NCBI GenBank assembly: GCA_965209225.1
Contig: OZ242379.1
Coordinates: forward strand, 1,421,289 to 1,485,288
From: Thermodesulfobacteriota bacterium
GTDB taxonomy: Bacteria; Desulfobacterota_D; UBA1144; Nemesobacterales; Nemesobacteraceae
Length of the DNA: 64,000 nt
Reading direction: 5' to 3'
Each line of letters opens with the position of its first letter. Position 1 is the first letter of the stretch. Positions 8,965-63,363 of this stretch are shown here, piece after piece. Below the pieces are notes generated by a model. It searched no databases. It saw only the letters and a program-made list of their open reading frames with translations, and was not told the origin of the DNA. The translations under genes were made by a program, and so were the position numbers.

Positions 8965-9066
8965 GCGTTTTCCCGTAAAACTAGTTTTTTGTTTTTCTCC
9001 TATTATAATTACTGAATACTTTTACCGGCATGTTGTCCTTCCGGATAAGTTAGACGGAAATTTACC

Positions 9067-10485: not shown

Positions 10486-10600
10486 AGATCTCTCCTTACT
10501 TTGATCCGCTCTTTCAATTCAGTTTTCTACCATTCCTGTTATATTTTCTCATCCGGGCTGAACGGTCTGCTCCTCAGACAGTAACGGTTCACCCTGCTGT

Positions 10601-13237: not shown

Positions 13238-13453
13238 AAATTAATTTCTTTGTAAATCTCCTTAACCGCTCCGCAAATAACCGCCGCTACGGACCTGAAA
13301 CTCCCGGAAGGGACGCATCCTACGAAGTTGAAAACAGGTTTTCCACTGCCCGTTTGGCAATAATTCGCCGGTTCTGAATTCAACAAATTCATCAGATTGG
13401 TTTGAACTCAAACCTTTGAAGAGTTCTCTTTGCTCAGAAAATTAATAGAGGGG

Positions 13454-14784
13454 CACTACTGTCCCGACGTTTTGAGCTGAGTGTGTTGTAACCACCTGAC
13501 TACAAAGATAAAACAGCCGTTAAAGGATGCGTCGGACTTGAAGTTTAAAGTTCACTTTCCCATGATACCTGTATCTATCAGCATAACAGGAGGCAGATAT
13601 CATGTACACGGGGAAACTGGTTTTCTCTCAGCTCATGGAGCATCTTCCGTGGGATACTTTCCATAGATACGTAAAACGTTATAACGGCAATCACAAAGTC
13701 AAATCGTTCTTCTGCGCGGAGCAGTATCGCTGTATGGCCTTTGCACAGCTTGCCTACAGAGATAGCCTTCGCGACGTAGAAACCTGCCTGCGCGCCCAAG
13801 CAAAAAAACTCTATCACATGGGAATCTCAAGCGGCATATCACGCAGTACTCTTGCTGTCGCAAACAGAAATCGCAACTGGCAAATCTACGCGGATTTCGC
13901 ACAGCGCCTTATCCGTAAAGCCCGCTTGCTCTATCGTGACGATGACAACGGGCTTGATATCCCCGACACTGTCTACGCACTGGATTCCTCGACCATAGAC
14001 CTCTGTCTCAATTTATTCTCGTGGGCTAATTTCCGAAGAACCAAAGCAGCCGTAAAACTCCATACACTGCTTGATCTGCAAGGCTATATCCCTGCCTTCA
14101 TTCACATTTCCGATGGCAAACTCCACGATGTCAATGTTCTGGACAGAATCATTCTCGAACCCGGAGCCTTTTATGTTATGGACAGAGCCTACCTTGACTT
14201 CACCCGCCTGTATCGCCTCCACCAGTCAATGTGCTTCTTTGTTCTGCGAGCCAAAAAGAACACCAAGTACCGCCGGATTAAATCCCACAAGGTGGACCGT
14301 TCCACAGGACTTATCTACGACTGGACAATTAAACTCTCAGGCCCAAAGAGCATCAAAGATTTCCCCGACTCCTTACGAGCAGTAAAGTATCGGGATAAGG
14401 AACGTGATAAGACCCTCACTTTCATTACAAACAACTTCTCGCTTCCTGCCATTACCATTTGTGAACTGTATCGGAATCGGTGGCATGTTGAACTGTTCTT
14501 CAAATGGATCAAGCAGCACCTGAGAATCAAGAGTTTCTATGGAACCTCGGAGAACGCCGTGAAATCCCAGATATGGATAGCGGTTTCAGTCTATGTTCTC
14601 ATAGCGATCATAAAAAAACGTCTTGGGCTTGAGCATAGTTTCCACACAATTTTGCAGATTTTGAGCCTGACCCTGTTTGAAAAAATACCGTTAAATCAGC
14701 TACTTACGAAAGGACTGGATTTGTCTCCAGACTCAGTGTATCATAACCAGCTGAAATTGTTTGATTAACATCAAGACACTAGTG
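13454..14784 (+). mobile_element. IS4-family insertion sequence with a 9-bp target site duplication
   Basis: Imperfect terminal IRs cactactgtcccgacg (left) and cactagtgtcttgatg (right, reverse complement). Direct repeats ATAGAGGGG lie at 13445-13453 and 14785-14793. Confidence 0.7.
13602..14768 (+). CDS. IS4-family DDE transposase
   Basis: 388 aa with a DUF4372-like N-terminus and a DDE_Tnp_1 core. A 61-aa C-terminal fragment paralog lies at 24204-24389. Confidence 0.75.
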   Translation: MYTGKLVFSQLMEHLPWDTFHRYVKRYNGNHKVKSFFCAEQYRCMAFAQLAYRDSLRDVETCLRAQAKKLYHMGISSGISRSTLAVANRNRNWQIYADFAQRLIRKARLLYRDDDNGLDIPDTVYALDSSTIDLCLNLFSWANFRRTKAAVKLHTLLDLQGYIPAFIHISDGKLHDVNVLDRIILEPGAFYVMDRAYLDFTRLYRLHQSMCFFVLRAKKNTKYRRIKSHKVDRSTGLIYDWTIKLSGPKSIKDFPDSLRAVKYRDKERDKTLTFITNNFSLPAITICELYRNRWHVELFFKWIKQHLRIKSFYGTSENAVKSQIWIAVSVYVLIAIIKKRLGLEHSFHTILQILSLTLFEKIPLNQLLTKGLDLSPDSVYHNQLKLFD

Positions 14785-14965
14785 ATAGAGGGGGATGAAT
14801 GTGGGGTATTTAGGATATCTGGAAAGGTAATTGTAAAAGTGAAACTCAGATTTTTTGCTGAACCTGAATTCCCAACTGTAAGGAGTGAAGTTACATCCAA
14901 GATGAGTTTCATTCCATATTTCCGTATTTTTTCGTAGCAAGCCAATCAGTTTTGTCATTGTTTTA

Positions 14966-16291
14966 GTTAAGGGCACTTCTAAAAATACCCTTATATTCCA
15001 GTTAAACTCTAAACAGGAACAAAAGCATATCTGCCTACCCCCGCCAAATTACAGGGCGGTGGGCACAGATACGATAAAACAATAACCGGAGGAAGGAAAG
15101 TGGAACAGCTGGATTTCGGAGAAAAGAACAGGTACGTGAGACTGGATGACAAGAAAGACCCCCTGGTCAGACTCAACGCAATAATTCCCTGGGAGATGTT
15201 CCGTCCCCTACTGAGGTCGGTGTGGCGGAAGCCCGAGGGGGAGCGCAAGTCAAGCGCGGGGCGCAAGCCGTGGGACGAGATAGTGATGTTCAAGACAATA
15301 ATTCTGTGCGCTCTTTACAATCTGTCTGACGAACAGGTGGAGTACCAGATACTGGACCGTCTGTCGTTCACAAGGTTTCTGGGTCTTGAGCTCAAAGACA
15401 GGGTACCCGACGCAAGGACGGTATGGCTCTACAGGGACAAGCTCGCGCAGGCGGGGGTGATAGAGGAGCTGTTTGCGGATTTCGATGGTTATCTGAACAA
15501 AAGTGGATACAAGGCAATGGGAGGCCAGATAATAGACGCTTCCATAGTGTCGGTGCCGAAGCAGAGAAACACGAGGGATGAGAACAAGAAAATAAAGAAT
15601 GGGGAAGTTCCCCAAGAGTGGAAGAAAGAAAAGCGCGCGCAGAAGGATACCGACGCGAGATGGACAAAGAAACGTGGGACAAGTTATTACGGTTACAAAA
15701 ACCACGTGAACATAGATGCGAAGAACAAGCTGATAAGAGATTACGGGGTGACCGACGCATCTGTGCATGACAGTCAGATGTTTGAAGAGATACTGGATGA
15801 GGATAACAGTGGTGAAGGGGTATGGGCAGACAGCGCTTACAGGTCAAAGGAGATGGAGAAGAAGCTCCAGGAGAAGGGATACAGAAGTCATATTAACCGC
15901 AAGGGGTCCCGGAACAAGCCGCTTGGGAAATGGGCTGAGTATGCCAACAGGATTTATTCGGTGGTGAGGGTGAGGGTTGAGCATGTGTTCGGAGCGCAGA
16001 GCAACGACATGGGAGGAAGGCTTTTAAGAAGCATAGGGATTGTGAGGGCCAGGGCGCACATAGGACTTAAGAATTTGGCTTACAACATGCGGCGGCTGGT
16101 TTATCTTGAGGGAACGGTATAAGGGAAAATAGGATTGGAAATGGTCATGAAACACAGAGAATTGCTTCTTATGGCACGAAAAATGGGACAAAAAGCAGCT
16201 TTGCATGACGAAAACCCTTTGAGTTGAAAGGGAAAATGGAAAGTTGTTCGCAATCCTGAACCGCAAACCAATTTTTAGAAGTGCCCTTAAC
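14966..16291 (+). mobile_element. IS5-family insertion sequence nested inside another IS
   Basis: 21-bp perfect terminal IRs gttaagggcacttctaaaaat at 14966-14986 and 16271-16291 (inverted). No clear TSD. Confidence 0.7.
15100..16122 (+). CDS. IS5-family DDE transposase
   Basis: 340 aa; resembles the IS5/ISL2-group transposase N- and C-terminal regions. Confidence 0.75.
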   Translation: MEQLDFGEKNRYVRLDDKKDPLVRLNAIIPWEMFRPLLRSVWRKPEGERKSSAGRKPWDEIVMFKTIILCALYNLSDEQVEYQILDRLSFTRFLGLELKDRVPDARTVWLYRDKLAQAGVIEELFADFDGYLNKSGYKAMGGQIIDASIVSVPKQRNTRDENKKIKNGEVPQEWKKEKRAQKDTDARWTKKRGTSYYGYKNHVNIDAKNKLIRDYGVTDASVHDSQMFEEILDEDNSGEGVWADSAYRSKEMEKKLQEKGYRSHINRKGSRNKPLGKWAEYANRIYSVVRVRVEHVFGAQSNDMGGRLLRSIGIVRARAHIGLKNLAYNMRRLVYLEGTV

Positions 16292-16431
16292 CTATAAACA
16301 CTTTTTTATAATAATCCACTACCTCAAAACTCAATCCACCAGCACTTCTCTCCCATTCCTTATGTTTCACCCCCGTATCACATTAACCCACTGCAAACAA
16401 ACCATTTGACTCACCTCAACCCCAACAAATA

Positions 16432-18246
16432 TTGCTTGACAATGATGAACATACAGAATATAGTATTAACTATAGTGATAGTGTGTTTATCTGTTTACTA
16501 TCTGCAATGACATCACCACACGCAAAAAGATTCCTGGAACCAACAAACCCAGCCCAAAAACGCTACGAAGCCCTGCGCGCGTATTATGTAGACGGATTGT
16601 CCTCAGTTGAAGTGGCCGGACGTTTCGGATACTCCCACGGAACTGTCCGCAACATGTGTTCGGAATTTGCCAACAGCGATGATCCGGATTTCTTTTTGCC
16701 CAAGCCGCGCAAGCGCAAAGTCGCCCGCAAGGAAGACGACGCCTCCATGCGCAAGGAGAGGATACTTGAGTTACGCAAATCAGACGGCCTTTCCATCTAT
16801 GACATCATTGATGTCTTGAAGAAGGAAGGTGTTTCTGTGAGTTCAGCCTATGTTCACGGTGTGCTTAAAGATGCGGGGGTCGGGAAGCTTGCGCGGAGGT
16901 CTTTGGATGAGAGGCTGGACATTGTACGAGCACATAAAGCGGCTACATCTGATCGAAGGGCGCTTGATCTGAACTCCCGGACGTTTTCCACCAATTTCGC
17001 GGGGTTGTTTCTGTTTGCCCATGATCTAGGGAGAGTGGATATTGACAGCGTAGTGGAGAATATGCCGGGCAGCGGGATGATACCGGCGGGTTGCGCGTTT
17101 CGTTCTCTGCTTGTTTTGAAGCTGTGGGGTATAGGGAGGCCTTCACGGATAATGGCAGAGACTCTTGACGAGGGGTTGGGGCTGTTCAGCGGTCTTAACG
17201 TGATACCGAAGCGAAGCACTCTTACTGAGTATTCGTGCAGGGTTGATCCCCGAGTGAACCCCGGGTGTATGGACAGGTGGTACAAGGCGTTGCGAGGGCT
17301 CGGGGTTGCGCTTGGCGGAGAGGAATCGTTTGATCTTGATTTCCACACTATTCCCTATCATGGGGACGCAGCATTGGTGCAGAGACATTATGTGTCGAAG
17401 AGAAGCAGGCGGCAGAAGGGGGTACTGGCATTTGTAGCGAGGGACGCCGAGGCGAGGATGTTTGCCTGGGCAAACACTGATATACGCAAAGAGGGGATGA
17501 GCGATGAGATACTTCGGTTCATAGAGGGGTGGGAGAAGCGTACTGGGTGGAAGCCGAAGGAGCTTGTGTTTGACAGCGGGTTCACCACATATGCCAATTT
17601 GTGGAAGCTTAACGAGATGGGCATAGGATTTCTGACGTTACGAAGAAGGTCTGAGAAGATGGTTTCAGAGTTGTTTGCGAAGCCGTCATCTGAGTGGAAG
17701 AAGATAAGACTCGGCAATGTGGACAGGGAGTACAGGACACCAAGGGTATATGAGCAGAGAGTCAGGATCAGGGATTATCCGGAGGATGTACGTCAGATAG
17801 CGATAAGGGATCTTGGGCGCAGGAAGCCGGTGTTGCTTTTGACCAATCAGATGGAGGAGAGTGCGTCGGATATTATAGACCGTTACGCGAGGCGGATGAT
17901 AATAGAGAATACGATATCGGACGCTATAGACTTTTTTCACATGGATGCGCTGAGTGCGGCTGTGGCTATGAAGGTAAATGTGGACACTCAGCTCACGGTG
18001 ATGGCAAGTGGGTTGTACAGGTTGCTGGGGAAGCGAGTAGGCAGGGGGTATGAGGTTGCGAGGGCACGGACTATATTCCGTGATCTTGTGAATACGAGCG
18101 GAAGAATTGAGATAACCGCGCAGGAAGTAATAGTAAGTCTGGGTCGCAGGGCGAACAATCCGCTGCTTATAGCAGCTGGCTACGAGGAGATGGAAGAACC
18201 GATCCCTTGGCTTGATGACCGTGTTCTCAGAATCCGGTTCTTCTGA
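16432..18246 (+). CDS. DDE-type transposase (family uncertain; ISNCY/IS1634-like) with an N-terminal HTH
   Basis: 604 aa, carried on an IS bounded by IRs. Family assignment is unverified. Confidence 0.5.
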   Translation: MLDNDEHTEYSINYSDSVFICLLSAMTSPHAKRFLEPTNPAQKRYEALRAYYVDGLSSVEVAGRFGYSHGTVRNMCSEFANSDDPDFFLPKPRKRKVARKEDDASMRKERILELRKSDGLSIYDIIDVLKKEGVSVSSAYVHGVLKDAGVGKLARRSLDERLDIVRAHKAATSDRRALDLNSRTFSTNFAGLFLFAHDLGRVDIDSVVENMPGSGMIPAGCAFRSLLVLKLWGIGRPSRIMAETLDEGLGLFSGLNVIPKRSTLTEYSCRVDPRVNPGCMDRWYKALRGLGVALGGEESFDLDFHTIPYHGDAALVQRHYVSKRSRRQKGVLAFVARDAEARMFAWANTDIRKEGMSDEILRFIEGWEKRTGWKPKELVFDSGFTTYANLWKLNEMGIGFLTLRRRSEKMVSELFAKPSSEWKKIRLGNVDREYRTPRVYEQRVRIRDYPEDVRQIAIRDLGRRKPVLLLTNQMEESASDIIDRYARRMIIENTISDAIDFFHMDALSAAVAMKVNVDTQLTVMASGLYRLLGKRVGRGYEVARARTIFRDLVNTSGRIEITAQEVIVSLGRRANNPLLIAAGYEEMEEPIPWLDDRVLRIRFF

Positions 18247-18599
18247 CCCTCAATGTGTCATCTCAGTTTTTGTAGTTGGGAATTCAGGCTGAAGCGGAGT
18301 CGAGAGTTCCCTATGAACTCACGGCGACCGGCCCTATGCCTTCACTTCTACATGAAACCACCGCCATGTCCCACAAACCACAAGGAACCTCGACCCGCTA
18401 TACTGCTTATTTCATGCCTTCAGTTAAATTTGCAGTCAAGAATAAACCACGCTATCTACCTACTACCATATTATAATTCGAGTGCTGATTCAATTAAAAT
18501 TTGCAAATGTAGTTGAAAAATGAAAAGTTCGTGAATAGTTATGAATTTCAGTGACTTAGAGGTAAGAACCCCCTCGGACTTATGCTTATCCCGAGAATT

Positions 18600-19487
18600 C
18601 TATACGTGAAAATGCTCTTTCTGGAATTCCTTCCTGATCTTGCTAAGAGCGTTTTTTTCTATCTGTCTTACACGTTCTCTTGAGATACCGAATTTGCGGG
18701 AAAGTTTTTCAAGAGTCTCGGGAGAATCGGTGAGAACGCGCCTCTCGATAATGTATCTTTCCCTGTCTTTCAGGTTCGCCAGGGCCTCTTTTATCTTTTT
18801 CGCCACAAGCGGGCGGGTCTGGGAGTCTTCGAGGAACTGCTCCTGGTCAAACGTGTCCCCCAGCATGTCAACATAGGTGCGTTCCGTGCTGCCTTCTATG
18901 TTTGCGTCAAGAGACAGGTCCTTTCCCGACATTATCCGGTCCATCTCGATTACCTGGCTGTCCGGCACATCAAGTTCTCTGGCTATCTCGGAGTAAATAT
19001 CCTCTCCCATCTCCGCTCCGGTGGCTTCGATTTTGTTTTTCGTCGATCTCAGTTTGTAGAAGAGCTTTCTTTGCGACTGGTTCGTACCGATTTTCACCAG
19101 GCTCCAGGTTTTCATTATGTGGTTCTGTATGTAGGCCCTTATCCACCAGACAGCGTATGAGATGAGCCTGTATCCCTTGGTCGGATCAAAGCCTCTTACG
19201 GCTTTCATGAGTCCTATGTTGCCTTCCTGGATAAGATCCATGGTGTTTACGTTGTAGTTTTTGTATTCGTTCGCAATGCGCACGACGAACTTCAGGTTTG
19301 ATACGATCAGTTTTCTGGCGGCCTCAAGATCACCCGTTTCCCTGTGCCTCATCGCGAGTTCATATTCTTCTTCCCTGCTCAAAACAGGGTAGTCCCTGAT
19401 CTGCGCCAGATAGCTTTGCAGGGAGTTTGAAAGCGCGGGAAGAGATGAACTCGCTTCTTCCGGTCTCTTTTCTTTTTTTCCGGCCAT
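18600..19487 (-). CDS. rpoH: RNA polymerase sigma-32 factor (heat-shock sigma)
   Basis: Sigma-70 regions 2-4 are present, together with an RpoH-box-like QRKLFYKLR segment. Confidence 0.75.
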   Translation of the reverse strand: MAGKKEKRPEEASSSLPALSNSLQSYLAQIRDYPVLSREEEYELAMRHRETGDLEAARKLIVSNLKFVVRIANEYKNYNVNTMDLIQEGNIGLMKAVRGFDPTKGYRLISYAVWWIRAYIQNHIMKTWSLVKIGTNQSQRKLFYKLRSTKNKIEATGAEMGEDIYSEIARELDVPDSQVIEMDRIMSGKDLSLDANIEGSTERTYVDMLGDTFDQEQFLEDSQTRPLVAKKIKEALANLKDRERYIIERRVLTDSPETLEKLSRKFGISRERVRQIEKNALSKIRKEFQKEHFHV

Positions 19488-19572
19488 TTTTGCTTCGGTA
19501 TTAGATTTGTTGACTGTTTTTCTTATCTATATAAAATTAACCATTCTTTGGCTTTTTTCTATTTTCTGCAGT

Positions 19573-19648
19573 TCCGGCGTAGCTCAGTTGGCAGAGCAGA
19601 TGACTGTTAATCATCGGGTCGCAGGTTCGAGCCCTGCCGCCGGAGCCA
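19573..19648 (+). tRNA. tRNA-Asn (GTT)
   Basis: Cloverleaf with a 7-bp acceptor stem TCCGGCG/CGCCGGA, anticodon loop CTGTTAA, T-arm GCAGGTTCGAGCCCTGC and an encoded CCA. Confidence 0.9.
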
Positions 19649-19658
19649 AATTCCATCC

Positions 19659-20852
19659 CTAGAAACCTGCTTCATGCAGTTTATGCCAAGGCACGATATC
19701 CCCGTCCGTACGTTGCTGAAGTTGATTTCCTCCATAGGCTATGACTATATTGCACGGACGGGATAATTCGGTTAGATGTTTGCGGACGCGTCGTACCCGG
19801 CTGAACAGACCCGAAGACCCTGTCGCCGTGGACTTGGCGTCGACAAGCGTAATGCGGGACGGGTCCTCGATGATAATATCTACCTCGGCTCCATTGCGGT
19901 CGCGGTAAAATGAGAGACCTCCGGTCTTGCCACTGTTGCTTCGGTGCTTTGTTATCTCCGAGGCTACCCAGGTTTCGAAGATCGGGCCGCGAAGCGGATG
20001 AGAGTTTAACTGTTCGGGTGTCCGGATACCCAGGAGCCAGCAGACTAGCCCTGTGTCATAGAAATGCAGCTTCGGCATCTTTACGAGTCTCTTGCGCAGG
20101 TTCGAGTGAAAAGTCGGAAGGCGGAAAACGATAAAGCTCGTCTCAAGTATGTTAATCCAGGATTTCGCACTCGGCTGCGATATGCCGCAGTCATCAGCCA
20201 GTGAGGAATAGTTGAGCAACTGCGCCGTACGCCCGGCACACAGTTGGACAAACCGTTGGAATGTAGCTATATCAGCTACGTTGCTTACTGTTCGCACATC
20301 GCGTTCCACGTAAGTGGTGACATAAGAGCGAAACCAGTCGGACGGATCAAGATCAAGATCGAATATACGTGGGTATCCGCCGGCAAAAAGGGTCTCCTCA
20401 AGACTCGGGGGATGTCTGTCGAATCGCGTAATCTCGTTGCGCGCGAGAGGAAACAGGTTATATACTGCTGTCCTCCCGGCTAAAGACTGGCTGACCGATT
20501 TGAGTAGAGAAAAGTTCTGTGACCCCGTAAGTATCCAGCGCCCCGGCGCAGGATCTTCGTCGATTATGCCCTGCAGGTAGGAGAGAAGATCAGGCGCACG
20601 CTGCACCTCGTCGATTACGCAGCCTTTTGGAAATTGAGCCAGAAACCCTCTGGGATCCTCAGTTGCGAAAGCCCGTATGTCCGGAGCCTCAAGGCTTGCG
20701 TACGGATGGTGAGCGAACAAGGCCCTGCATAATGTTGTCTTACCGCTTTGCCGGGGTCCCGTAAGCGTGATGGAGGGAAACTTCCACGCTGCTTCGATAA
20801 GCTTTGGTGCTAGGTTGCGATTGATCATAACCAGTCGCAGTCTAACTGACAA
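19659..20852 (-). CDS. AAA+ ATPase (AAA_14/DUF4143 family)
   Basis: Walker A GPRQSGKTT and Walker B VIDEVQ. Its stop codon is 11 bp from the tRNA-Asn 3' end. The true start may be the internal MINRNL. Confidence 0.65.
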   Translation of the reverse strand: MSVRLRLVMINRNLAPKLIEAAWKFPSITLTGPRQSGKTTLCRALFAHHPYASLEAPDIRAFATEDPRGFLAQFPKGCVIDEVQRAPDLLSYLQGIIDEDPAPGRWILTGSQNFSLLKSVSQSLAGRTAVYNLFPLARNEITRFDRHPPSLEETLFAGGYPRIFDLDLDPSDWFRSYVTTYVERDVRTVSNVADIATFQRFVQLCAGRTAQLLNYSSLADDCGISQPSAKSWINILETSFIVFRLPTFHSNLRKRLVKMPKLHFYDTGLVCWLLGIRTPEQLNSHPLRGPIFETWVASEITKHRSNSGKTGGLSFYRDRNGAEVDIIIEDPSRITLVDAKSTATGSSGLFSRVRRVRKHLTELSRPCNIVIAYGGNQLQQRTDGDIVPWHKLHEAGF

Positions 20853-20860
20853 TCTAGGCT

Positions 20861-20901
20861 ATTTCAAATTCTTTTTTTGAAATAGCCTAGATCCTGCTTC
20901 A
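20861..20901. promoter_or_regulatory. Perfect 16-bp inverted repeat (ATCTAGGCTATTTCAA-n9-TTGAAATAGCCTAGAT)
   Basis: It lies between the stop of the 115-aa ORF and the start of the ATPase ORF. It could be a terminator-like hairpin or an operator palindrome. Confidence 0.5.
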
Positions 20902-20909
20902 GGAGTTCT

Positions 20910-21257
20910 CTAGATCAGATAGTAAATCAACATGAAGAGGTACCGCATGTTCGGGCTTGACTTGTGAGTCTCGAGCCTTGCCGAGAGATCCCCTATGCCG
21001 CCGAAGAATGAGTCATTATAGACTTCTGCTACTCTTTTAAACTCATCGAACTTGATAAGCGGCGGTTCGCGAACGGCAAGCGGCCGCACGTTTTTCTCGG
21101 CGGAAGTTATCCTGATTCCGTCACCTTCTGTAGTGGCCAAGAACCATCGCTGGGAGTCTTCGAGCATAAGCTCTATTCCGCCTTCGGTTTTCTGTCTAAG
21201 AATTTCCCACTCTTCTTCCTTGGATTCGCTGAAAGGTATTTTTCTGTCTGCAAGCAT
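20910..21257 (-). CDS. Hypothetical protein
   Basis: 115-aa ORF with no recognisable motifs. Confidence 0.35.
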   Translation of the reverse strand: MLADRKIPFSESKEEEWEILRQKTEGGIELMLEDSQRWFLATTEGDGIRITSAEKNVRPLAVREPPLIKFDEFKRVAEVYNDSFFGGIGDLSARLETHKSSPNMRYLFMLIYYLI

Positions 21258-52986: not shown

Positions 52987-53454
52987 TCACTCGGGATCTT
53001 TGACTACTTCGAATTTTTTTTCTTCAAACTGAAAATCCTGCTCGTTGATGTACCATATTCTCGCGTCGGCGAGCTTCCCGCGACTTACCGAGAAAATTAT
53101 ATACGCCCATCCGGGTGATGCCACCTGTCTGTCGGTCTCAGAAGGTGCTGAAGGGTGGTCCGGATGCGAGTGGTATATGCCGAGAATCTCAAGACCGTTT
53201 TCCCTCGCCCACGAATCCGCCTCTATGTAGGAACGCGGATCAAGCTCAAAGCGATCCCTTAACCGTCCGCTGTCAATCTCTGCTGTTTCCTTAAACGCCG
53301 TTTCAGATTCGTCGTCAGCGACCAGATTGGCGCATTTGCGAAAGTGAGTGACGGTATCTCCTTTCCCGATCATCACTCCGCATACCTCGTAAGGGTAACC
53401 GGATTCGGCGTCCCGTGTCATGCCCAGATAGGCCGATCTGTATATCTTCACCAC
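52987..53454 (-). CDS. JAMM/MPN+ metalloprotease (Mec-like)
   Basis: E...HSHPDHPSAPSETD JAMM motif. Confidence 0.75.
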   Translation of the reverse strand: MVKIYRSAYLGMTRDAESGYPYEVCGVMIGKGDTVTHFRKCANLVADDESETAFKETAEIDSGRLRDRFELDPRSYIEADSWARENGLEILGIYHSHPDHPSAPSETDRQVASPGWAYIIFSVSRGKLADARIWYINEQDFQFEEKKFEVVKDPE

Positions 53455-54389
53455 CAGAGTCCTTCGCTCAGGTACCTTCTGCCCGAGTCGGGAAGAGTCG
53501 TAACAAGTACCCCTTCCTTCAGTTTTTTCGCGTACTCAAGCGTTACGCAGACTGCGGCTCCTCCCGAATGACCCACGAATATCCCCTCGGTATCCATCAG
53601 CCGCTCCATCATCTCATACGCTTTCTCAGTTGAGATAAAAACGACTTCGTCAGCCGCCCCCTCGTCGTATATGCCTGGAACTATTGAAGTTGGCATATGC
53701 TTCATGCCTTCAAGCCCGTGAAGACTTTCTGCGGGCTGGATCGCGATTGTCTTTATGTCGGGGTTGTATTCCTTAAGTCTCCTCCCGGTTCCCATGAAGG
53801 TTCCCGATGTGCCGAGTCCCGCGAGAAAATGGGTCACTTTGCCGTTTGTCTGCTCCCAGATCTCGGGCGCGGTCGTTTCGTAGTGAGCCAGGAGGTTGTT
53901 GATGTTGTTGTACTGGTCCGGCATGAAGTATTTCTCAGGATTATCCGCTTTCAGTCTGTGAGCCATTCTTATCGCTCCGTCGGAACCCTCAAGAGGGCTT
54001 GAGAAGGTTATCTTCGCTCCGTAAGCTTCGATCGCTTTTTTTCTCTCGGTGTTTACATTCTCGGGCGTTACGATTTCAACCTCGTACCCGAGTGCGGCTC
54101 CGAGCATCGCGTACGCAATCGCTGTATTCCCGGAGGATGAGTCCATAATGACCTTGTCTTTTGTGAGTTCGCCGGAGCGTATAGCTTCAAGGATCATCCT
54201 GCGGGCGGGACGGTCTTTTATCGAACCACCTGGATTGAACCACTCGGCCTTTGCGTAAATGCTGACTCCAGGAGAGCATTGCTTAGACATCTCGGAGAGT
54301 TCCAAAAGAGGGGTGTTGCCTATAAGGTCAACCACCGATTCGACTCTTGAACCTCCGGCGGCGGAGGTTCCGGCTTCGGATCTAGACAT
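53448..54389 (-). CDS. cysM: Cysteine synthase (CysM/CysK, PLP-dependent)
   Basis: SIKDR PLP-lysine motif, GTSGT loop; 313 aa. Confidence 0.8.
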   Translation of the reverse strand: MSRSEAGTSAAGGSRVESVVDLIGNTPLLELSEMSKQCSPGVSIYAKAEWFNPGGSIKDRPARRMILEAIRSGELTKDKVIMDSSSGNTAIAYAMLGAALGYEVEIVTPENVNTERKKAIEAYGAKITFSSPLEGSDGAIRMAHRLKADNPEKYFMPDQYNNINNLLAHYETTAPEIWEQTNGKVTHFLAGLGTSGTFMGTGRRLKEYNPDIKTIAIQPAESLHGLEGMKHMPTSIVPGIYDEGAADEVVFISTEKAYEMMERLMDTEGIFVGHSGGAAVCVTLEYAKKLKEGVLVTTLPDSGRRYLSEGLWW

Positions 54390-54390
54390 G

Positions 54391-54630
54391 TCAGCAGCGC
54401 TCGATGATTACCTTGTGGTAGCGGCCGTCTTCCTTCTCTATGGAGAGGACCCTGTGACCTTCCTGCTCCACGCTTCTCGGGAGATTGGAGAGAGGTTCTC
54501 CTTCGCAGAGCCTTACTTCAAGGACTTCCCCGCGCTTCATCTGCTCAAGCTTGAGCTTGGTTTTGACGAATGTCATCGGACAGATGTAGTCAGTTATGTC
54601 TATTTTTTCCTTGCTCTGCGTGTTGTCCAT
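54391..54630 (-). CDS. TusA-like sulfur-carrier protein
   Basis: 79 aa with CPMT...GEVLEV. The conserved Cys sits near residue 17, as in TusA/SirA. There is no C-terminal GG. Confidence 0.6.
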   Translation of the reverse strand: MDNTQSKEKIDITDYICPMTFVKTKLKLEQMKRGEVLEVRLCEGEPLSNLPRSVEQEGHRVLSIEKEDGRYHKVIIERC

Positions 54631-54719: not shown

Positions 54720-55316
54720 CTACAAGCTTCGCAATCGCCGAAGCAGTGCCGCGGCATGTGGACATGCTGCCTCGACGAGCGACGGATTTACCTTGGCGAG
54801 CACTTCAAAAGAGGTTTTGCCCTTGGAATAGGATTTTCTGCATTTCGAGGTGGCTTTTCCAAGTGTCCCATGGACAGTTTCTTTCAATACCTGTTCTAAA
54901 TGAGGCCACTGCTTGACAACATTACTGTCGAATTGTGTGCCGAAAAAGGACTGCAGTGCGTTCTGGTCGGCGAGAAACCAGGTTTCCATACACTGAACCA
55001 TAAGGAATGCCTGATTATCCTGCGCGTGTTCGGGACGATACCAGTTGTCGTTTTTTAGAAGGTGTTTCCAGGCTGAGCTTCCCTCATCAACCGGAGATTC
55101 GCTGTCGACCAGGAGCATGGGGATCATTCTGGAGGAAACTTCCTCAGTTGCTCTTTTGAATTTCCGGAAAGTCTGTTCGCGTCCTCCTCCGTGCACAATT
55201 TTAATGTTGTGAACTTCGGCCGCTTCAAAGAATTTTCGCCAGCCTTGGCGAAAAGATATTCCAAGAGCTTTGGATTTGGTTCCTCCACCCTCAATATAGA
55301 TCTTCGCTCCTACCAC
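54720..55316 (-). CDS. DUF4276-like (TOPRIM/OLD-related) protein
   Basis: 198 aa with a KIYIEGGG N-terminus. It is encoded immediately downstream of, and overlapping, an ABC-type ATPase gene. Confidence 0.45.
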   Translation of the reverse strand: MVGAKIYIEGGGTKSKALGISFRQGWRKFFEAAEVHNIKIVHGGGREQTFRKFKRATEEVSSRMIPMLLVDSESPVDEGSSAWKHLLKNDNWYRPEHAQDNQAFLMVQCMETWFLADQNALQSFFGTQFDSNVVKQWPHLEQVLKETVHGTLGKATSKCRKSYSKGKTSFEVLAKVNPSLVEAACPHAAALLRRLRSL

Positions 55317-56548
55317 CTGTTACCGCCCAATTCCCCTGAAGTCCACAGGTGCCCTAGGCGATACTCTTCAAGCCATTTCGCAGTATCTTCTCTGTCAAGA
55401 CGTCGCATCTCTGTCTGTCCGTTATGTTTTTCGCAGATTACTACGCTCTGCGGATTGTCGTTGAGGGCGTCAACTAACACATCGGAGTGGGTAGTTACAA
55501 TCAACTGTGTATGGTCCGAGGCTTTTACCAGCAGGTCGCTTAACGTTGGAAGCAAATCAGGGTGAATGCCCAGCTCAGGTTCCTCAATCACCAGAAGAGG
55601 CGGTGGGTCCGGGTGCAGCAGGATGCTCAGGAGACACAGGTAACGTAATGTTCCATCTGACAAACGCGTAATAGGGATCAGGCGGTTATTACTTTCCTCC
55701 AAGTGAAGTGTCATTGACCCCCCAGCAACGGAGCACTCAATGCCGATAATGCCATCAAAAAGCTTGCACAGTTCCACAAGCAGTTCTCTCTTCGCCTCTC
55801 CATGAAAATTCGAGAGGACAAGAGGCAGGTTAGCGCCTCCATCATCAAGAAAGTCGGCGCGATCATGTGTGCTCTGACTCCTTCGCAGTTCAGACGAGGG
55901 TCCAAACGACCAGTTTCTGTAAAGACGGATTTTACTGTACTGCTCCTTCAGATGCCAGAGTCCCGGATAATCGGGGGTGGCCATATAAGACAGCAACGAC
56001 TGTTCCGGATGAAGTTCGTCTGCGAAATTCACTGTGCCGTCGCGGTAAACGGCGAACAGCTTGGGAGTTGTCCATTCACCATTTTTCTTTCCTGAATCCC
56101 CTTGCTCAGCTTCCGCATTGGTTCTTGAAATTTCGAGAGATATCTGTTCATCCCTGGGAGGACGATAGTAGGAGAATGCCTCACGTTCGTTGCTGTGGGT
56201 CTGGCAAGGTTCAACTTGCTCACTGATTACTTTTGGTTGACCATTTCTCTGCGCCATTGTTAGTTTATGTCGTAGCGGGCCACTTGGCGGATAGTCAACC
56301 CAGGCCTCTATGGAGAAGGAATCAGGCGCTTTGGGGCCTTTCCATATCCATTCCCCGGCCCCACCCATGCGGGATATTGGTTCTGAAACACCTCTTGGCG
56401 CCGCTCTCAGCAGGGCTACTGCCTCAAGAAAATTTGATTTCCCCGACCCGTTTGTGCCTATAAGAACATTCAGTGGTTCCATGGGCAGATCAACACCATC
56501 GGGACCAAATGATAAAAAGCCTGAGATTTTCAGCTTTTCAATCAGCAT
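55310..56548 (-). CDS. AAA_15/AAA_21-type (OLD/ABC-like) ATPase
   Basis: Walker A GTNGSGKSNFLEA, Walker B/D-loop LLVIEEPELGIHPDL and a C-terminal TTHSD motif. Confidence 0.7.
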   Translation of the reverse strand: MLIEKLKISGFLSFGPDGVDLPMEPLNVLIGTNGSGKSNFLEAVALLRAAPRGVSEPISRMGGAGEWIWKGPKAPDSFSIEAWVDYPPSGPLRHKLTMAQRNGQPKVISEQVEPCQTHSNEREAFSYYRPPRDEQISLEISRTNAEAEQGDSGKKNGEWTTPKLFAVYRDGTVNFADELHPEQSLLSYMATPDYPGLWHLKEQYSKIRLYRNWSFGPSSELRRSQSTHDRADFLDDGGANLPLVLSNFHGEAKRELLVELCKLFDGIIGIECSVAGGSMTLHLEESNNRLIPITRLSDGTLRYLCLLSILLHPDPPPLLVIEEPELGIHPDLLPTLSDLLVKASDHTQLIVTTHSDVLVDALNDNPQSVVICEKHNGQTEMRRLDREDTAKWLEEYRLGHLWTSGELGGNRW

Positions 56549-56742
56549 ACTTATATTTCCCGCTGCGGATGTGCAGAACGGAGTCTGGCTTCAGTTAAAG
56601 TAAAACCATTTTTCCAGCTATTACCGTTAAAAAGATTATACCAGCATAGAGGGTGTTGGCGAACTCAATGCTCAATCTCATAAGGGATTCCGGTTTTTAT
56701 CCGGAAGTTCTACACTGCAAGAACTCAACTTACCTCAAAGAG

Positions 56743-57519
56743 TCAATCAATATCCCAATCAGGACGTCGCCGAGGGATAGGACGAAGGTCAGATTCGCTG
56801 CCTTTAAGCTCGGCAAGCCGCCGAGCGCTCTCCCTCGCTTTTCGTGATTTTATCCAGAACACGGCGCTCTCGAACATTTTCCTGCCGTCCTCGGAACCGA
56901 ACACTCTTTCAGAGGACCGCTCAGGGTGGGGCATCATCCCGAGTACATTGCCCCGGGCATTTGCCACGCCCGCTATTGCATCCTGAGCCCCGCTCGGGTT
57001 TGCCGCGTCGTCGTACTCTCCATCCGGCCCGCAGTAGCGAAGAACCGTCCTCGGAGCCACCCCCGCTTCCGGCATGAAGTTTCCCTGAGCGTTTGCAACC
57101 GGCAGTTTCAGCACATCTCCCTCGCGAAGAAGGCAGGTAAAGGGCGTATCGGTATCCTCTACCCTCACACAGGTCCATCTGCAGACAAACCTCAGAGATG
57201 AATTGTGAAGGAACGCTCCGGGCAGGAGGCCCGACTCGACCAGTATCTGGAACCCGTTGCATATCCCTATTACGGGAACTCCCTCGGCGGCGAGCTGCGC
57301 AAGCGGACCCATGACCGGGGAGAAGCGTGCTATGGCCCCTGCCCGCAGGTAGTCCCCGTAGGAAAACCCGCCCGGCACGACGACGCAGTCGATTCCCTCA
57401 AGGGACGTTTCCTCGTGCCATATAAATTCGCAGGGCTGGCCCAGAATTTCCTTTATGACGTGACAGCAGTCGTCCTCGCAGTTAGAACCGGGAAAGAAGA
57501 GAACTCCGAAATTAGGCAT
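56743..57519 (-). CDS. purQ: Phosphoribosylformylglycinamidine synthase subunit PurQ
   Basis: Glutamine amidotransferase with GICNGFQ and an H/E catalytic context. Confidence 0.85.
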   Translation of the reverse strand: MPNFGVLFFPGSNCEDDCCHVIKEILGQPCEFIWHEETSLEGIDCVVVPGGFSYGDYLRAGAIARFSPVMGPLAQLAAEGVPVIGICNGFQILVESGLLPGAFLHNSSLRFVCRWTCVRVEDTDTPFTCLLREGDVLKLPVANAQGNFMPEAGVAPRTVLRYCGPDGEYDDAANPSGAQDAIAGVANARGNVLGMMPHPERSSERVFGSEDGRKMFESAVFWIKSRKARESARRLAELKGSESDLRPIPRRRPDWDID

Positions 57520-60040: not shown

Positions 60041-60466
60041 TTACGCGTAAAGCAGAAACGGATTCTGCGCGGTTACCGTGCCGTACATGCGGCCGTGCTG
60101 GAAATCTTCTGAGAACAGTTCCCGTATGCCGTGAACTTCAGCGTAGGCCCAGATATGCGCGTCAAACCACGACAGTCCGTATGCCCCCGCTCCGCGCAGG
60201 GCCATTCGCAGTACAGATTCATCGGGATAGATAATCGGCAACTGGGCCATCAGTTCTTCCGCTTCGCGTCTTGCGTCCGCAAATTCAAGGATTCGATTTC
60301 CTGGTGCTCCCCGGGTTGTCGACGCGACGAATTCAATTATTGACTGGTGCGTGATACGTAAATACCCGCTTTCGGCCCCCTCGCGAACAATCCGCCTCGC
60401 AATCCGTTTCTTGTCCGGGAACCTGCCATCGTAACAATAGACCAGTATGTTGGTGTCAATCAGCAT
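60041..60466 (-). CDS. vapC: PIN-domain toxin VapC
   Basis: MLIDTNILVY start with acidic residues of the PIN fold. The start was chosen at the internal Met overlapping the antitoxin stop. Confidence 0.7.
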   Translation of the reverse strand: MLIDTNILVYCYDGRFPDKKRIARRIVREGAESGYLRITHQSIIEFVASTTRGAPGNRILEFADARREAEELMAQLPIIYPDESVLRMALRGAGAYGLSWFDAHIWAYAEVHGIRELFSEDFQHGRMYGTVTAQNPFLLYA

Positions 60467-60752
60467 TCGGGCTGCCCCGAGTGTAGAGTTCTTCCCGGGT
60501 CCAGCCCCGATCAGTCGCTGGGGCTCGTGTCCTTCCCGCTTCACGGGCATCATGCCGGGCCATTGCCTCATCAAACATACGCAGACGAGTTTCAGTATCG
60601 AGTTCTTTTTTCTGCATACGGGCATTGGGGGGCACAACGCGGATGGTCTCTCCGGCCTCCTCAAAACGTATATCATCCCCAGGCCGGATTCCGTAACGCT
60701 CGGCAATTGCTTTTGGCACCGTTACCTGCAGTTTGCTGCTTACTTTAGCCAT
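60456..60752 (-). CDS. vapB: AbrB/MazE/SpoVT-type antitoxin VapB
   Basis: N-terminal swapped-hairpin motif LQVTVPKAIAERYGIRPGDDI; overlaps vapC by 11 nt. Confidence 0.65.
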   Translation of the reverse strand: MAKVSSKLQVTVPKAIAERYGIRPGDDIRFEEAGETIRVVPPNARMQKKELDTETRLRMFDEAMARHDAREAGRTRAPATDRGWTREELYTRGSPNAD

Positions 60753-61128
60753 ATCTTTACTCTATCAAAGAAAATTTCTTTGTCAATTGTGTCGCAAGGA
60801 ATCTGCGGGGTCGGAAAATGAAAATGACTGTCATTGCGGCCTCTACATCCTGCCCTGCCATCGAAACGGATTCGCTGTTCATTTATTTCGCGGTAACCAG
60901 CATCAAAAAGAAGGTTGGCAAAACCGATTGCTAAGCAGATTCCAAACGGGAACAAGATTGCTTTTGAGGCGTTACCAGAACAGATGCTTCCGGGTGAAGC
61001 GTCTCAGGAAGAAGAGCGAACATCCGATCAAGTTCCGGCCACCCTCTCTCTTTTTTTCGCCCATGCAGATTTCGTCAATCTCTATCTCACCGAAGAACTG
61101 GTTAGCATCCGGCCTGTCTGTCTCTCCT

Positions 61129-61464
61129 TCAGTCGCCGTAGGCAAACATTTCCCGTAACACATCCGCTACCTCCCGCGCGCGCGCATCCGGCAGAACGCC
61201 CAGCCGTCTGACCAGGCGAGACTTGTCCACGGTTCTTATCTGATCGAGCACTACTTGGCCTTTTTTCCGCTGAAAGGTGACATTCACGCGACTGGGGTAG
61301 TATCTCTGCGTTGAAGTCATCGGTGCTACTATGACCGTGCGGATGTACTGGTTCATCTCATCAGGAGAAATAACTACGCATGGCCGCATCTTGCGGATTT
61401 CCGACCCCCGCGCGGGGTCCAGGTTGACCAGGTATATATGATATCGCCGAACCTGCTCTACCAC
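61129..61464 (-). CDS. mazF: MazF/PemK-family endoribonuclease toxin
   Basis: YLVNLDPARGSE and RPCVVIS motifs. Confidence 0.75.
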   Translation of the reverse strand: MVEQVRRYHIYLVNLDPARGSEIRKMRPCVVISPDEMNQYIRTVIVAPMTSTQRYYPSRVNVTFQRKKGQVVLDQIRTVDKSRLVRRLGVLPDARAREVADVLREMFAYGD

Positions 61465-61709
61465 GTCCAGTCCCCGACGTCAAAATCGTTTTCAAGCCCG
61501 GCAGGAACAAGCGGCGCGTCGTCACCGACGGTCGCCATTTTTTCAAAGGCCGCACCCCAGCCCTCGCGCGCGCTCCGTAGCGGCGCAAGCATGATGACTC
61601 CGTTCTCAACACGCATCTCAATCTCGTTGCCCAGGCCGCACTGCTTGATAACCGAGGAAGGGATACGAATTCCTTTTGAATTGCCGATAGATATAAGATC
61701 AATCTTCAT
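61458..61709 (-). CDS. mazE: MazE/AbrB-family antitoxin
   Basis: MKIDLISIGNSKGIRIP; overlaps mazF by 7 nt. The start was taken at the internal Met. Confidence 0.65.
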   Translation of the reverse strand: MKIDLISIGNSKGIRIPSSVIKQCGLGNEIEMRVENGVIMLAPLRSAREGWGAAFEKMATVGDDAPLVPAGLENDFDVGDWTW

Positions 61710-61758
61710 GGGTTTATCTCCTTGTGTAATTACATTGTAATCACCACGTAGGCAGGTT

Positions 61759-62135
61759 TCAAGATCGTCGCCTCGCTTCTTCGGCATCTGGCTCGCCAGG
61801 ATTATCACTGCGAGAATTGGTCATTATTTCTCCGTTGTCGATTATGTCCCGCGCTTTCGCAAAGTCGGCGACAGTTATTTCAGGATGATTCTTGTGACTT
61901 TTGTCCCTCCGGTCGGCAAAAAACTTTACTGAATGGATTTTCCCCGCCCCGAAGATTCTCCTTGTCTCCGCATCCATAACCACAATCGGAAACATCCCCC
62001 GACCTTCCCCTCGAAGAACCTTCGCGGGAACCCCGGCCATCCCCGTGCTTTACGTCCGAGTTGAAATTCATACCAGAAAGCGGCATCAGCCAAGTCCATT
62101 TCCGCTTCTTCGCGGAACCGGATTTCGTAACTCAC
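61759..62135 (-). pseudogene. Probable frameshifted RelE/ParE-family toxin
   Basis: The 61926-62135 frame begins with the RelE/ParE-like N-terminus MSYEIRFREEAEMDL and then degenerates. The adjacent 61759-62040 frame continues the coding potential. Confidence 0.35.
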
Positions 62136-62283
62136 AGTTTTTTGCGAATTTCCGAAATGACCTCATCTGCGGGTCTTCCTGGATATTTAGCAGTTCGTAT
62201 GCGTCAAGCCCTTTGTCAAGCTCGGCTTTCTGTTCGGATGAAAGAGAAATGGAGTTCTGGTCAGAGGCGATGCTGTCCCACAT
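62086..62283 (-). CDS. Putative addiction-module antitoxin
   Basis: 65 aa with LSSEQKAELDKGLD. It is positioned upstream of, and overlapping, the ParE-like remnant. Confidence 0.45.
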   Translation of the reverse strand: MWDSIASDQNSISLSSEQKAELDKGLDAYELLNIQEDPQMRSFRKFAKNCELRNPVPRRSGNGLG

Positions 62284-62717
62284 GTCTTCTGCAAGGCGAA
62301 TCCGTTCATCGACCGGCAGATTTTTCAGACTATGATCCAGGGCAGTTAAAGTATCTTGAATTCCGTGATTTGAAAAAACTGGGTGTCATTAGTCGCGAAA
62401 TCGGGTAGCATGCAATAATAATAGGGACTTACAGATGATGGACGAAAGTGTTTGAGGCGGGGGACAGGATGCTCGTGTACGACCAGTGTCTACCCATGGC
62501 GGAAATTCGTGCCGAAGGTCCTGAGTGAGAAAACATGAGTCTTCAGATGTTTCGTACGTGAACGGCAAAGTGCACAGGGCCTTTCACCTCTTTTTTCGGG
62601 ATGGTGAAGGAGAAAGAAGGGGTGTGGTCTCCCGGTTCAGGATGGATGCGAACAGGGGTGTCCCATAGAGGAAAATTCGATTCGGCTGGAGTTTCGTGAG
62701 AAGAGAGAGGATATGAG

Positions 62718-63026
62718 ATGATTCCCACTATAGAGGAGCGGGCCGAGGAACTGAGATGTCTGTGCCTTCATTACGGGGTTAGGCGTCTCGACCTGTTCGG
62801 TTCGGCTGTAACAGGCCGGTACGACCCGGAAAAGAGCGACTTGGACTTTCTGGTCGAATTTCAGCCGTCGGCATTCGACGCTTATGCGGACGCCTATTTT
62901 GGCTTGCTGGAGGCTCTCGGGCAGCTCTTTGGACAGCCCGTCGACCTGGTCGTGGAGTCGGCCATCAAGAACCCTTACTTCCTGCAATCAGTGGAGCAGA
63001 CGAGGATTCCTGTCTATGAAGCTTGA
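62718..63026 (+). CDS. mntA: MNT nucleotidyltransferase antitoxin
   Basis: GSAVTGRYDPEKSDLDFLVEF minimal nucleotidyltransferase motif. Confidence 0.75.
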   Translation: MIPTIEERAEELRCLCLHYGVRRLDLFGSAVTGRYDPEKSDLDFLVEFQPSAFDAYADAYFGLLEALGQLFGQPVDLVVESAIKNPYFLQSVEQTRIPVYEA

Positions 63027-63363
63027 GACTCGAAAACACCTGTATGATATCCAACACGCTGCAAATCTGGTAAAAGAGTTCACAAATGACAAGACCTTTG
63101 TGGACTATGAAAGCGACTCCATGTTGCGGTCGGCTGTGGAGCGCCAGTTTGAGATCATTGGCGAGGCGATGACCAGTCTCGCCAGAATAGACAAACCGGC
63201 GGCGGAGCGAATCAGCTACTATCAACGCATTATCGCTTTCCGCAATATCCTTATTCACGGATACGCCAATGTGGACGACCGCTTGGTGTGGGATGTAATT
63301 AAGACCAATCTCCCGGTCCTCGAACGCGAGGTTGATGCCATCCTGAAGGAAATCAAATCATGA
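63016..63363 (+). CDS. hepT: HepT (DUF86) toxin
   Basis: R(x4)HxY motif RNILIHGY. The ATG at 63016 overlaps the MNT stop. Confidence 0.75.
   Translation: MKLETRKHLYDIQHAANLVKEFTNDKTFVDYESDSMLRSAVERQFEIIGEAMTSLARIDKPAAERISYYQRIIAFRNILIHGYANVDDRLVWDVIKTNLPVLEREVDAILKEIKS

Follow-up and report, generated by a model that had tools for sequence, protein, structure and literature searches.

An ATPase-DUF4276 gene pair of the candidate defense system HEC-01 in a core-gene neighborhood of a Thermodesulfobacteriota bacterium

Do two overlapping genes that lie among core genes of a Thermodesulfobacteriota bacterium form a defense module built like a split OLD-family nuclease? The genes occur in a stretch of 64,000 nucleotides (nt) that we refer to as the window (GTDB lineage Bacteria; Desulfobacterota_D; UBA1144; Nemesobacterales; Nemesobacteraceae; NCBI GenBank assembly GCA_965209225.1, contig OZ242379.1, positions 1,421,289 to 1,485,288 of the forward strand). 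An original prediction, made from the DNA letters, proposed an ABC-type ATPase of the AAA_15/21 kind that is followed, with a 7-nt overlap, by a TOPRIM-like DUF4276 protein, in a design akin to those of AbiL, PARIS, and Gabija. Our analyses place the pair in an already catalogued candidate system, HEC-01. We consider it probable, by analogy with systems of the same plan, that the pair is a stand-alone HEC-01 module of the OLD, PARIS, Gabija, and Septu type, with the ATPase as a sensor-scaffold and the DUF4276 protein as a nuclease effector.

Identity of the pair and the ATPase motifs

Both genes are on the minus strand of the window. Gene A, encoding the 412-residue ATPase, extends over positions 55310-56548 and starts with ATG, and gene B, encoding the 198-residue DUF4276 protein, extends over 54720-55316, starts with GTG, and yields a protein with the N-terminus MVGAKIYIEGGG. 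The junction reads AAC AGG TGG TAG in the frame of A, and the GTG start of B takes its first base from the end of AGG and the other two from the beginning of TGG, which produces a 7-nt overlap at 55310-55316. The open reading frame (ORF) list and the junction DNA thus agree exactly with the limits and the overlap given in the original prediction.

PADLOC profiles identified the pair outright as HEC-01A and HEC-01B. Protein A matched HEC-01A model PDLC04177 (2.6e-132, 439.6 bits) with residues 1-412 against model positions 3-393 of 393, and protein B matched HEC-01B model PDLC04201 (4.2e-63) with residues 1-196 against positions 1-197 of 202. All 38 aligned B homologues also matched PDLC04201. 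HEC-01, for Hma-embedded candidate 01, was described as an ABC ATPase, HEC-01A, with a TOPRIM-like protein, HEC-01B (Payne et al., bioRxiv 10.1101/2024.01.29.577857). The pair shares with that system full-length profile matches, gene order, a two-gene layout, same-strand adjacency, and a putative metal site, and it is a member of HEC-01 by profile and architecture. It differs in lying in a core-gene neighborhood, outside Hma or any other defense system, although Hma was the context of discovery and is not needed for detection. Because HEC-01 had already been described, the pair is less novel than the original prediction implied.

The strength of the PADLOC matches and the ratios of nonsynonymous to synonymous substitutions (dN/dS) establish that both ORFs are real genes and not chance ORFs. 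In pairwise estimates against three diverged relatives, dN/dS was 0.11-0.17 for A and 0.24-0.27 for B, and both genes are under purifying selection.

In agreement with the proposed ABC-type AAA_15/21 ATPase, protein A, an ABC ATPase of the SMC/OLD/PtuA kind, matched Pfam families AAA_21 (2.1e-33), AAA_15 (1.1e-15), and, over the P-loop region, SMC_N (6.4e-12). Weaker PADLOC matches of A were to AriA (PDLC02980, 1.7e-33), AbiLi (1.5e-25, partial), mad3 (5.5e-23), Old, and GajA, and the NCBIfam MAD3 equivalog NF047739 was matched at 6.8e-23 with 81.5 bits against a cut-off of 420. The ATPase half of phage P2 Old in turn gave matches of 1e-19 to 1e-22 to the models of HEC-01A and mad3.

We read the conservation of motifs in A from two homologue alignments (n = 31 and n = 28); homologues were 58-93% identical. 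As judged from these alignments, A has intact ATPase motifs throughout. The Walker A motif or P-loop, G31-T-N-G-S-G-K37-S38, is encoded at 56435-56458 (minus strand), and its G31, N33, S35, G36, K37, and S38 are invariant in both alignments. A signature-like ABC motif, S297-D-G-T300 within RLSDGTLRYL, is encoded at 55649-55660 (minus strand; tca gat gga aca) in a region where R295, S297, D298, G299, T300, L301, and R302 are invariant. The predicted Walker B motif with its catalytic glutamate, L318-L-V-I-E322-E323, lies at 55580-55597 (minus strand) and is followed by the D-loop PELGIHPD; we placed both by position from the general pattern of ABC ATPases. E322 does not vary in either alignment, nor does E323 in alignment A3, and P324, E325, G327, H329, P330, and D331 of the D-loop are invariant. 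The H-loop histidine, H354 in V-T-T-H-S, is encoded at 55487-55489 (minus strand), and all five residues of this motif (V351, T352, T353, H354, and S355) are invariant.

The variable part of A is its middle, at approximately residues 110-180, where lineage-specific insertions occur; this variable insert is a probable specificity determinant. The C-terminal tail of A, G-E-L-G-G-N-R-W, is unusual, and its G405, G408, G409, and W412 are invariant. The AlphaFold model of A was poor, with a predicted local distance difference test score (pLDDT) of 61.8 and values below 50 in the N-terminal 73 residues. Foldseek with this model returned PtuA (of Septu and retron systems) and the heads of SMC and Rad50 as best matches at approximately 1e-7, and because the model is of low confidence, these matches provide a coarse class assignment only.

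The DUF4276 protein and its relation to TOPRIM

The DUF4276 assignment of B, part of the original prediction, was borne out by Pfam with a match above threshold (9.4e-14; 52.5 bits, with the gathering score at 30.2), and the NCBIfam models returned no match for B. The subfamily is large, with 2589 clusters at 50% identity (E <= 1e-3). Unlike that of A, the AlphaFold model of B was confident (mean pLDDT 94.4; predicted template modeling score 0.90), and it shows a beta-alpha-beta-alpha-beta-alpha-beta core with a helical region after it. Across the 38 homologues, E9, G10, G12, R46, D71, E73, E111, D117, E141, and K165 are invariant. In the model, E9, G10, and G12 lie just after beta1, R46 lies after beta2, D71 and E73 lie at the end of beta3, and E111 and D117 lie after beta4. 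This layout fits the prediction of a TOPRIM fold because a glutamate follows beta1 and an acidic motif resembling D-x-D follows beta3.

We assigned three putative motifs in B, all on the minus strand. The putative TOPRIM glutamate motif, E9-G-G-G12, is encoded at 55281-55292, and its G11 is present in at least 90% of the 38 homologues. The putative metal-binding motif D71-S-E73, at the C-terminal end of beta3, is encoded at 55098-55106 (gac agc gaa), next to L68 and L69, which are also invariant. The second acidic cluster, E111-T-W-F-L-A-D117 within METWFLAD, is encoded after beta4 at 54966-54986, and M106, E111, W113, and D117 are invariant; this cluster may serve as another site for metal or as one for substrate.

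Profile-profile comparison provided modest, genuine support for a TOPRIM-like B. As the query for hhalign, we used a 177-sequence DUF4276 alignment from an exhaustive representative search, and as the template we used a 15-sequence OLD-family alignment with phage P2 Old and twelve diverse plasmid homologues, obtained by comparing full-length Old with plasmids. DUF4276 residues 5-76 aligned to the OLD TOPRIM core with a score of 21.6-23.6 (pairwise P 0.01-0.015). In this alignment, E9 coincides with the glutamate of the OLD VEG motif, the GGGR46 loop with the GKG loop of OLD, and D71-x-E73 with its D-x-D. All 300 column-shuffled templates stayed below this score (mean 10.8, standard deviation 1.9, maximum 19.2). 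The reversed template scored 17.2, and the OLD ATPase half produced 9 aligned columns with P 0.17. Two papers also place DUF4276 or HEC-01B in the Toprim superfamily from structure, and a conserved metal site has been reported for HEC-01 on alignment to BpOLD.

Several results weigh against a TOPRIM nuclease. The hhalign probability was only 3%, and the second acidic residue of B is glutamate, giving D-x-E and not the canonical D-x-D. Foldseek with the B model found no significant match in PDB and BFVD (best E 0.1, template modeling score below 0.4), and hidden Markov model (HMM) searches in either direction provided no link between DUF4276 and a TOPRIM family. The B family did not match PF20469 or another Toprim Pfam family at E <= 10, and permissive Pfam and PADLOC scans of 38 members found nothing of weight beyond DUF4276 and HEC-01B; in PADLOC at E <= 1, only HEC-01B models were matched, except for weak Csx1 matches of one member. 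Searches of PDB sequences by phmmer with B and by hmmsearch with the A1 profile yielded noise only. From the opposite direction, the TOPRIM region of P2 Old matched only Old and GajA among the best 25 of 36 matching PADLOC families, a homology search with this region returned 5 near-identical fragments, and tblastn with it against plasmids found no match. A first B alignment compared by hhalign with the single P2 Old sequence also produced nothing.

Considering that Foldseek fails on a model with a pLDDT of 94, DUF4276 would be a strongly diverged derivative of TOPRIM, if it is TOPRIM at all, and the domain of B is clearly far from a canonical TOPRIM domain. An alternative explanation for the lack of Foldseek neighbors is that the 3Di search is insensitive to a small core. 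Of the proposed TOPRIM-like character of B, the part that stood is a weak hhalign relationship with motifs in register, whereas Foldseek and HMMER found no similarity. The TOPRIM assignment was therefore partly reproduced and is the weakest link of our analysis; B is probably a TOPRIM-type nuclease.

Pairing, known systems, and a proposed mechanism

With the DUF4276 profile, we found 80 metagenomic loci and read the junction in 78 of them. An ATPase gene lay directly 5' of the DUF4276 gene in all 51 loci whose upstream sequence extended over 1250 nt or more, and the C-terminal end of the ATPase was present in 24 of 24 truncated loci, so that all 75 informative loci were paired. In four distant genomes with wholly different neighbors, the ATPase gene likewise directly preceded the DUF4276 gene and overlapped it by 4 or 7 nt. 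The two genes are thus obligately paired.

The junction itself is constrained. The tail codons of A (G-E-L-G-G-N-R-W) and its stop codon, at 55310-55333 on the minus strand, hold both the start of B and a GGNGG sequence. The invariant Gly-Gly codons of the A tail form this Shine-Dalgarno-like GGNGG, 7-11 nt before the B start, and among the 78 junctions, G accounted for at least 97% of the bases at each of positions -11, -10, -8, and -7. The tail GE[LI]GGNRW was found in 53 of the 78 junctions, and the stop codon was at the same frame position in 65. Most relatives end A with CGC TGG TGA, in which the sole possible start of B is the GTG inside TGGTGA, giving a 4-nt overlap. The 7-nt overlap of the window is lineage-specific, with a TAG stop and the GTG three bases upstream. 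The feature of the junction that is conserved across relatives is thus the frame relationship and not the length of the overlap. As read from these sequences, A and B are translationally coupled, and the overlap with its Shine-Dalgarno-like motif therefore suggests that the two proteins may form a stoichiometric A:B complex.

The ATPase-plus-TOPRIM design shared with AbiL, PARIS, and Gabija held by analogy only, and the same applies to any functional likeness of the pair to MADS, PARIS, AbiL, or OLD. MADS is an eight-gene methylation-associated defense system in which deletion of either mad3 or mad4 weakened defense and both genes count as accessory. Its Mad3-Mad4 proteins, to which the pair is related, also combine an AAA_15/21 ATPase with DUF4276, and A matches mad3 in both PADLOC and NCBIfam. 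Since the MAD3 score is 81.5 bits against 420 and no mad core genes are present, the pair is not a MADS component; none of mad1, mad2, mad5-8, or a methyltransferase gene was found within 4 kb, and the PADLOC matches of B at E <= 1 were to HEC-01B models only, apart from weak Csx1 matches of one member. PARIS, with the ATPase AriA and the DUF4435 protein AriB, has the same split two-gene design of an ATPase and a TOPRIM-class protein, and A and AriA are homologous. They do not belong to the same subfamily, as judged from 1.7e-33 for AriA versus 2.6e-132 for HEC-01A, and B is a 198-residue DUF4276 protein in contrast to a DUF4435 protein of approximately 300 residues. B had no DUF4435 match at E <= 10 and no AbiLii match; for lack of these effectors, the pair is neither PARIS nor AbiL, to whose AbiLi A shows only a partial match. 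PARIS is often found on phages and satellites, whereas we found no HEC-01 relative on viral contigs in a scan with one peptide pattern. The PARIS study groups MADS3-4 and AbiL with the ABC ATPase and TOPRIM systems.

Comparison with the OLD family produced a similar picture. P2 Old matches HEC-01A at approximately 1e-19 to 1e-21, and the putative TOPRIM core of B has its motifs in register with those of OLD. OLD proteins of classes 1-3, including P2 Old in class 1 and GajA of Gabija in class 2, carry ATPase and TOPRIM on a single polypeptide chain, in contrast to the two ORFs with a stop/start overlap here. B also lacks the OLD C-terminal helical region, and the pair lacks a GajB/UvrD partner as in Gabija. 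Because the genes are split, PF20469 is not matched, and the motif is D-x-E, the pair is not, strictly speaking, an OLD nuclease. Of the proteins encoded by the restriction-linked ORFs rloA and rloB, RloA is an ATPase of the AAA_15/21 type. The slightly overlapping rloA-rloB genes lie inside a Type I restriction-modification (R-M) region of Campylobacter, and RloB (PF13707) has been placed in the Toprim superfamily. Many relatives of the pair are similarly located in Type I hsd loci, between hsdS or hsdM and hsdR, but the effectors differ, RloB versus DUF4276, and the window lacks hsd genes.

Relatives built on this plan have been solved (PARIS, Gabija, Septu/PtuA, and OLD), and after their example we propose, as the most likely mechanism, that A would oligomerize and keep the nuclease of B inactive. 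The middle insert of A (approximately residues 110-180) would sense a sign of infection, for example a protein of the phage or nucleic acid of foreign origin, and binding or hydrolysis of ATP by A would then free or activate the DUF4276 nuclease. The N-terminal 75 residues of B would provide a TOPRIM-like metal-binding core consisting of Glu9, a Gly-rich loop with Arg46, and Asp71-x-Glu73. Once active, B would cut nucleic acid, either DNA or tRNA, and block propagation of a phage or mobile element, possibly at the cost of the cell. PARIS provides a precedent, with a sensor scaffold that frees a tRNA-cleaving nuclease (PMC11464382). For the pair in the window, we infer the formation of a complex, its trigger, the nuclease activity and its substrate, and the defense phenotype.

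Genomic setting, alternatives, and meaning for the family

To place the pair among its relatives, we called the two nearest ORFs on each side, crudely and in a bulk scan, for 33 loci with enough flank. Type I R-M genes were located within two ORFs of the pair in at least 10 of the 33 loci, and the R-M proteins beside the pair amounted to 7 HsdR, 5-6 HsdS, and 3 HsdM. In four loci, hsdR starts on the same strand at the end of B or at most approximately 15 nt from it, and the embedded arrangement is hsdM-hsdS-[A-B]-hsdR. In another locus, a PDC-S02/YhcG nuclease of the PD-(D/E)xK type lies between B and hsdR. The other neighbors were unrelated, including glycosyltransferases, TPR proteins, and secreted proteins. 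This association with R-M matches the guilt-by-embedding logic behind the discovery of HEC-01 in Hma.

Within the clade, the setting is stable. Close relatives hold the pair at the same site in a collinear block of approximately 12 kb with 86-88% nucleotide identity, and at least four diverged relatives share this chromosomal site. The number of synonymous substitutions per site (dS) of the pair, 0.30-0.38, is similar to that of the flanking core genes, 0.19-0.74, which points to vertical inheritance. Because of the shared site, the flank-like dS, and the purifying selection, the sequences identify the pair as an old, vertically inherited, selectively maintained chromosomal resident in this clade. 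Outside the clade, neighbors were wholly different in every genome examined, a pattern suggesting that the cassette moves horizontally and does not serve a core function; at the level of the whole family, the cassette is clearly mobile.

Several aspects of this setting, together with published phage tests, weigh against a defense module. The pair lies outside any defense island here, between purS/purQ and parAB on one side and tusA-cysM on the other, and we found no Type I R-M homologue in the 64-kb window and no flanking direct or inverted repeats that would suggest recent insertion. The viral-contig result and the dS of the pair described above count on the same side. When one HEC-01 representative was challenged with the BASEL collection and classic coliphages, no protection was seen. 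The sole positive report, which is qualitative, concerns another representative, by which E. coli B was protected from one or more of T4, T5, and T7. With one negative and one positive published test, the anti-phage role of HEC-01 has been weakly tested, with mixed results.

An alternative that we consider unlikely is that the pair functions only as an accessory to an R-M or BREX/MADS-like system, with the stand-alone copy either inactive or dependent on a partner elsewhere in the genome. The R-M operons around at least 10 of the 33 loci fit this explanation, as do the overlapping rloA-rloB in the Campylobacter R-M region, the requirement of both accessory genes mad3 and mad4 for full MADS defense, and the failure of HEC-01 cloned alone to defend in one study. 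In contrast, approximately 70% of the sampled loci, including the window and all close relatives, have no R-M neighbor, with both genes intact and under selection, and a stand-alone HEC-01 clone was reported to be protective. The profile scores also separate the pair from such a partner system, with A far below the MAD3 cut-off and B matching only HEC-01B in PADLOC at E <= 1, apart from the weak Csx1 match of one member.

It is quite improbable that the pair, instead of acting in immunity, serves housekeeping or has been domesticated for genome maintenance in this small-genome lineage (2.0-2.4 Mb). Its cellular role would then be the processing of DNA or RNA, such as repair, or, like that of SbcCD, RecN, or RecF, recombination or the processing of chromosome ends. 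This explanation would account for the single site in diverged relatives, a dS resembling that of flanking core genes under purifying selection, and the neighborhood of parAB, purSQ, and ftsK, with recA approximately 8 kb away in relatives. The absence of flanking repeats, a GC content that dips only mildly, and the negative phage screen of one HEC-01 representative also fit, and A matches the N-termini of RecF, SMC, and Rad50. These last matches, however, cover only the P-loop region of approximately 45 residues and are far under the family cut-offs. The change of neighbors outside the clade, the location of approximately 30% of loci in Type I R-M operons, and the first discovery of the family embedded in Hma also argue against a housekeeping role.

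A related proposal, which we regard as a rather doubtful prospect, is that the module has become domesticated in this lineage, having stayed at one site between core genes through approximately 0.3-0.4 synonymous substitutions per site. It would then serve cellular nucleic-acid maintenance or a permanent first-line immunity and would not be a transient, horizontally shuffled defense gene. In that case, DUF4276 would represent a minimal nuclease fold of its own, derived from TOPRIM, and would act on a different substrate than OLD, Gabija, and PARIS do, for example a particular tRNA or DNA structure.

That A is the nucleotide-binding subunit of an ABC transporter with an unrelated B is effectively refuted: the weak NCBIfam transporter matches of A (UrtD, ECF, and AztA; E 3e-4 to 2e-3) reach 18-21 bits against cut-offs of 220-330, no permease, binding-protein, or membrane-protein gene adjoins the pair, a DUF4276 partner is constant in the informative loci, and the best matches of A are HEC-01A, followed by AriA, MADS3, OLD, and GajA, with PtuA, SMC, and Rad50 as structural neighbors.

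The flanking genes of the window agree by their Pfam matches with the location between a cysM cluster and purQ given in the original prediction. On the 5' side of A lies purQ (GATase_5, 56743-57519, minus strand), preceded by purS, parB, and parA, and on the 3' side of B lie tusA (54391-54630), the gene of a PALP/CysM-type enzyme (53448-54389), and that of a JAB protein; these three, too, are minus-strand genes. Together with a NuoN-like gene, the genes named here are the ORFs within 4 kb of the pair. GC content at the pair is 0.49-0.51 versus 0.52-0.59. A promoter-like site on the minus strand at 56635-56662 (TCGCCA, a 16-nt spacer with TG, and TATAAT), approximately 87 nt 5' of the ATG of A, could be the cassette's own promoter. 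It has 10 of 12 consensus matches and an extended -10 TG, a consensus match alone with no evidence of function, and the region contains 4 such sites versus 1.9 +/- 1.4 in shuffles. Between B and tusA, we found no site resembling a terminator; therefore, read-through from the cassette may be possible.

Other observations concern the surroundings of the pair. The tusA, PALP (CysM-like), and Prok-JAB genes directly 3' of the pair form a cluster at 52987-54630 with short overlaps or gaps, resembling a pathway for cysteine or thiocarboxylates that depends on a sulfur carrier protein. A toxin-antitoxin hotspot lies at 60044-63357 between pgpA and cinA and contains MazE-PIN (60044-60752), a probably disrupted Unstab_antitox homologue that spans two frames (62135-62328), and MNT-HepT (62718-63357); its gene content varies among the close relatives L004 and L010-L012. 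In L010-L012, the region beyond lolA (18000-21239) is also variable, with IS21 IstB, GmrSD_C, HTH-SocA/Panacea, and PIN-PhdYeFM, and looks like a second variable islet of defense and toxin-antitoxin genes approximately 7 kb from the pair. The host lineage is poorly represented, and the close relatives found were all contigs from metagenomes. They include circular contigs of 2.0-2.4 Mb (L010-L012, ENA ERZ24894576), which suggest a small-genome uncultured clade. The best PurQ match among the matches listed from GTDB species representatives had 57% identity, with matches scattered over phyla. In L005, a 6.2-Mb genome, the pair is followed within 8934-16597 by an 1822-residue SACS/NOV_C protein, TnpB (Cas12f-like), and an IS66 transposase, a context rich in mobile elements and unlike that of the window.

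HEC-01 is among the top 12 defense-system types of cold-seep microbes and among the most abundant candidate defense systems in environmental genomes, with contradictory phage data and an undemonstrated mechanism. This locus adds no new kind of system, and its value lies in the constraints that it places on an abundant family. The invariant residues provide targets for mutagenesis, K37 and E322/E323 in A and E9, D71, E73, E111, and D117 in B. Given the failure of Foldseek on a high-confidence model, a structure of DUF4276 would be informative. Finally, the family recurs both in Type I R-M operons and alone, and it can persist as a stable chromosomal resident.

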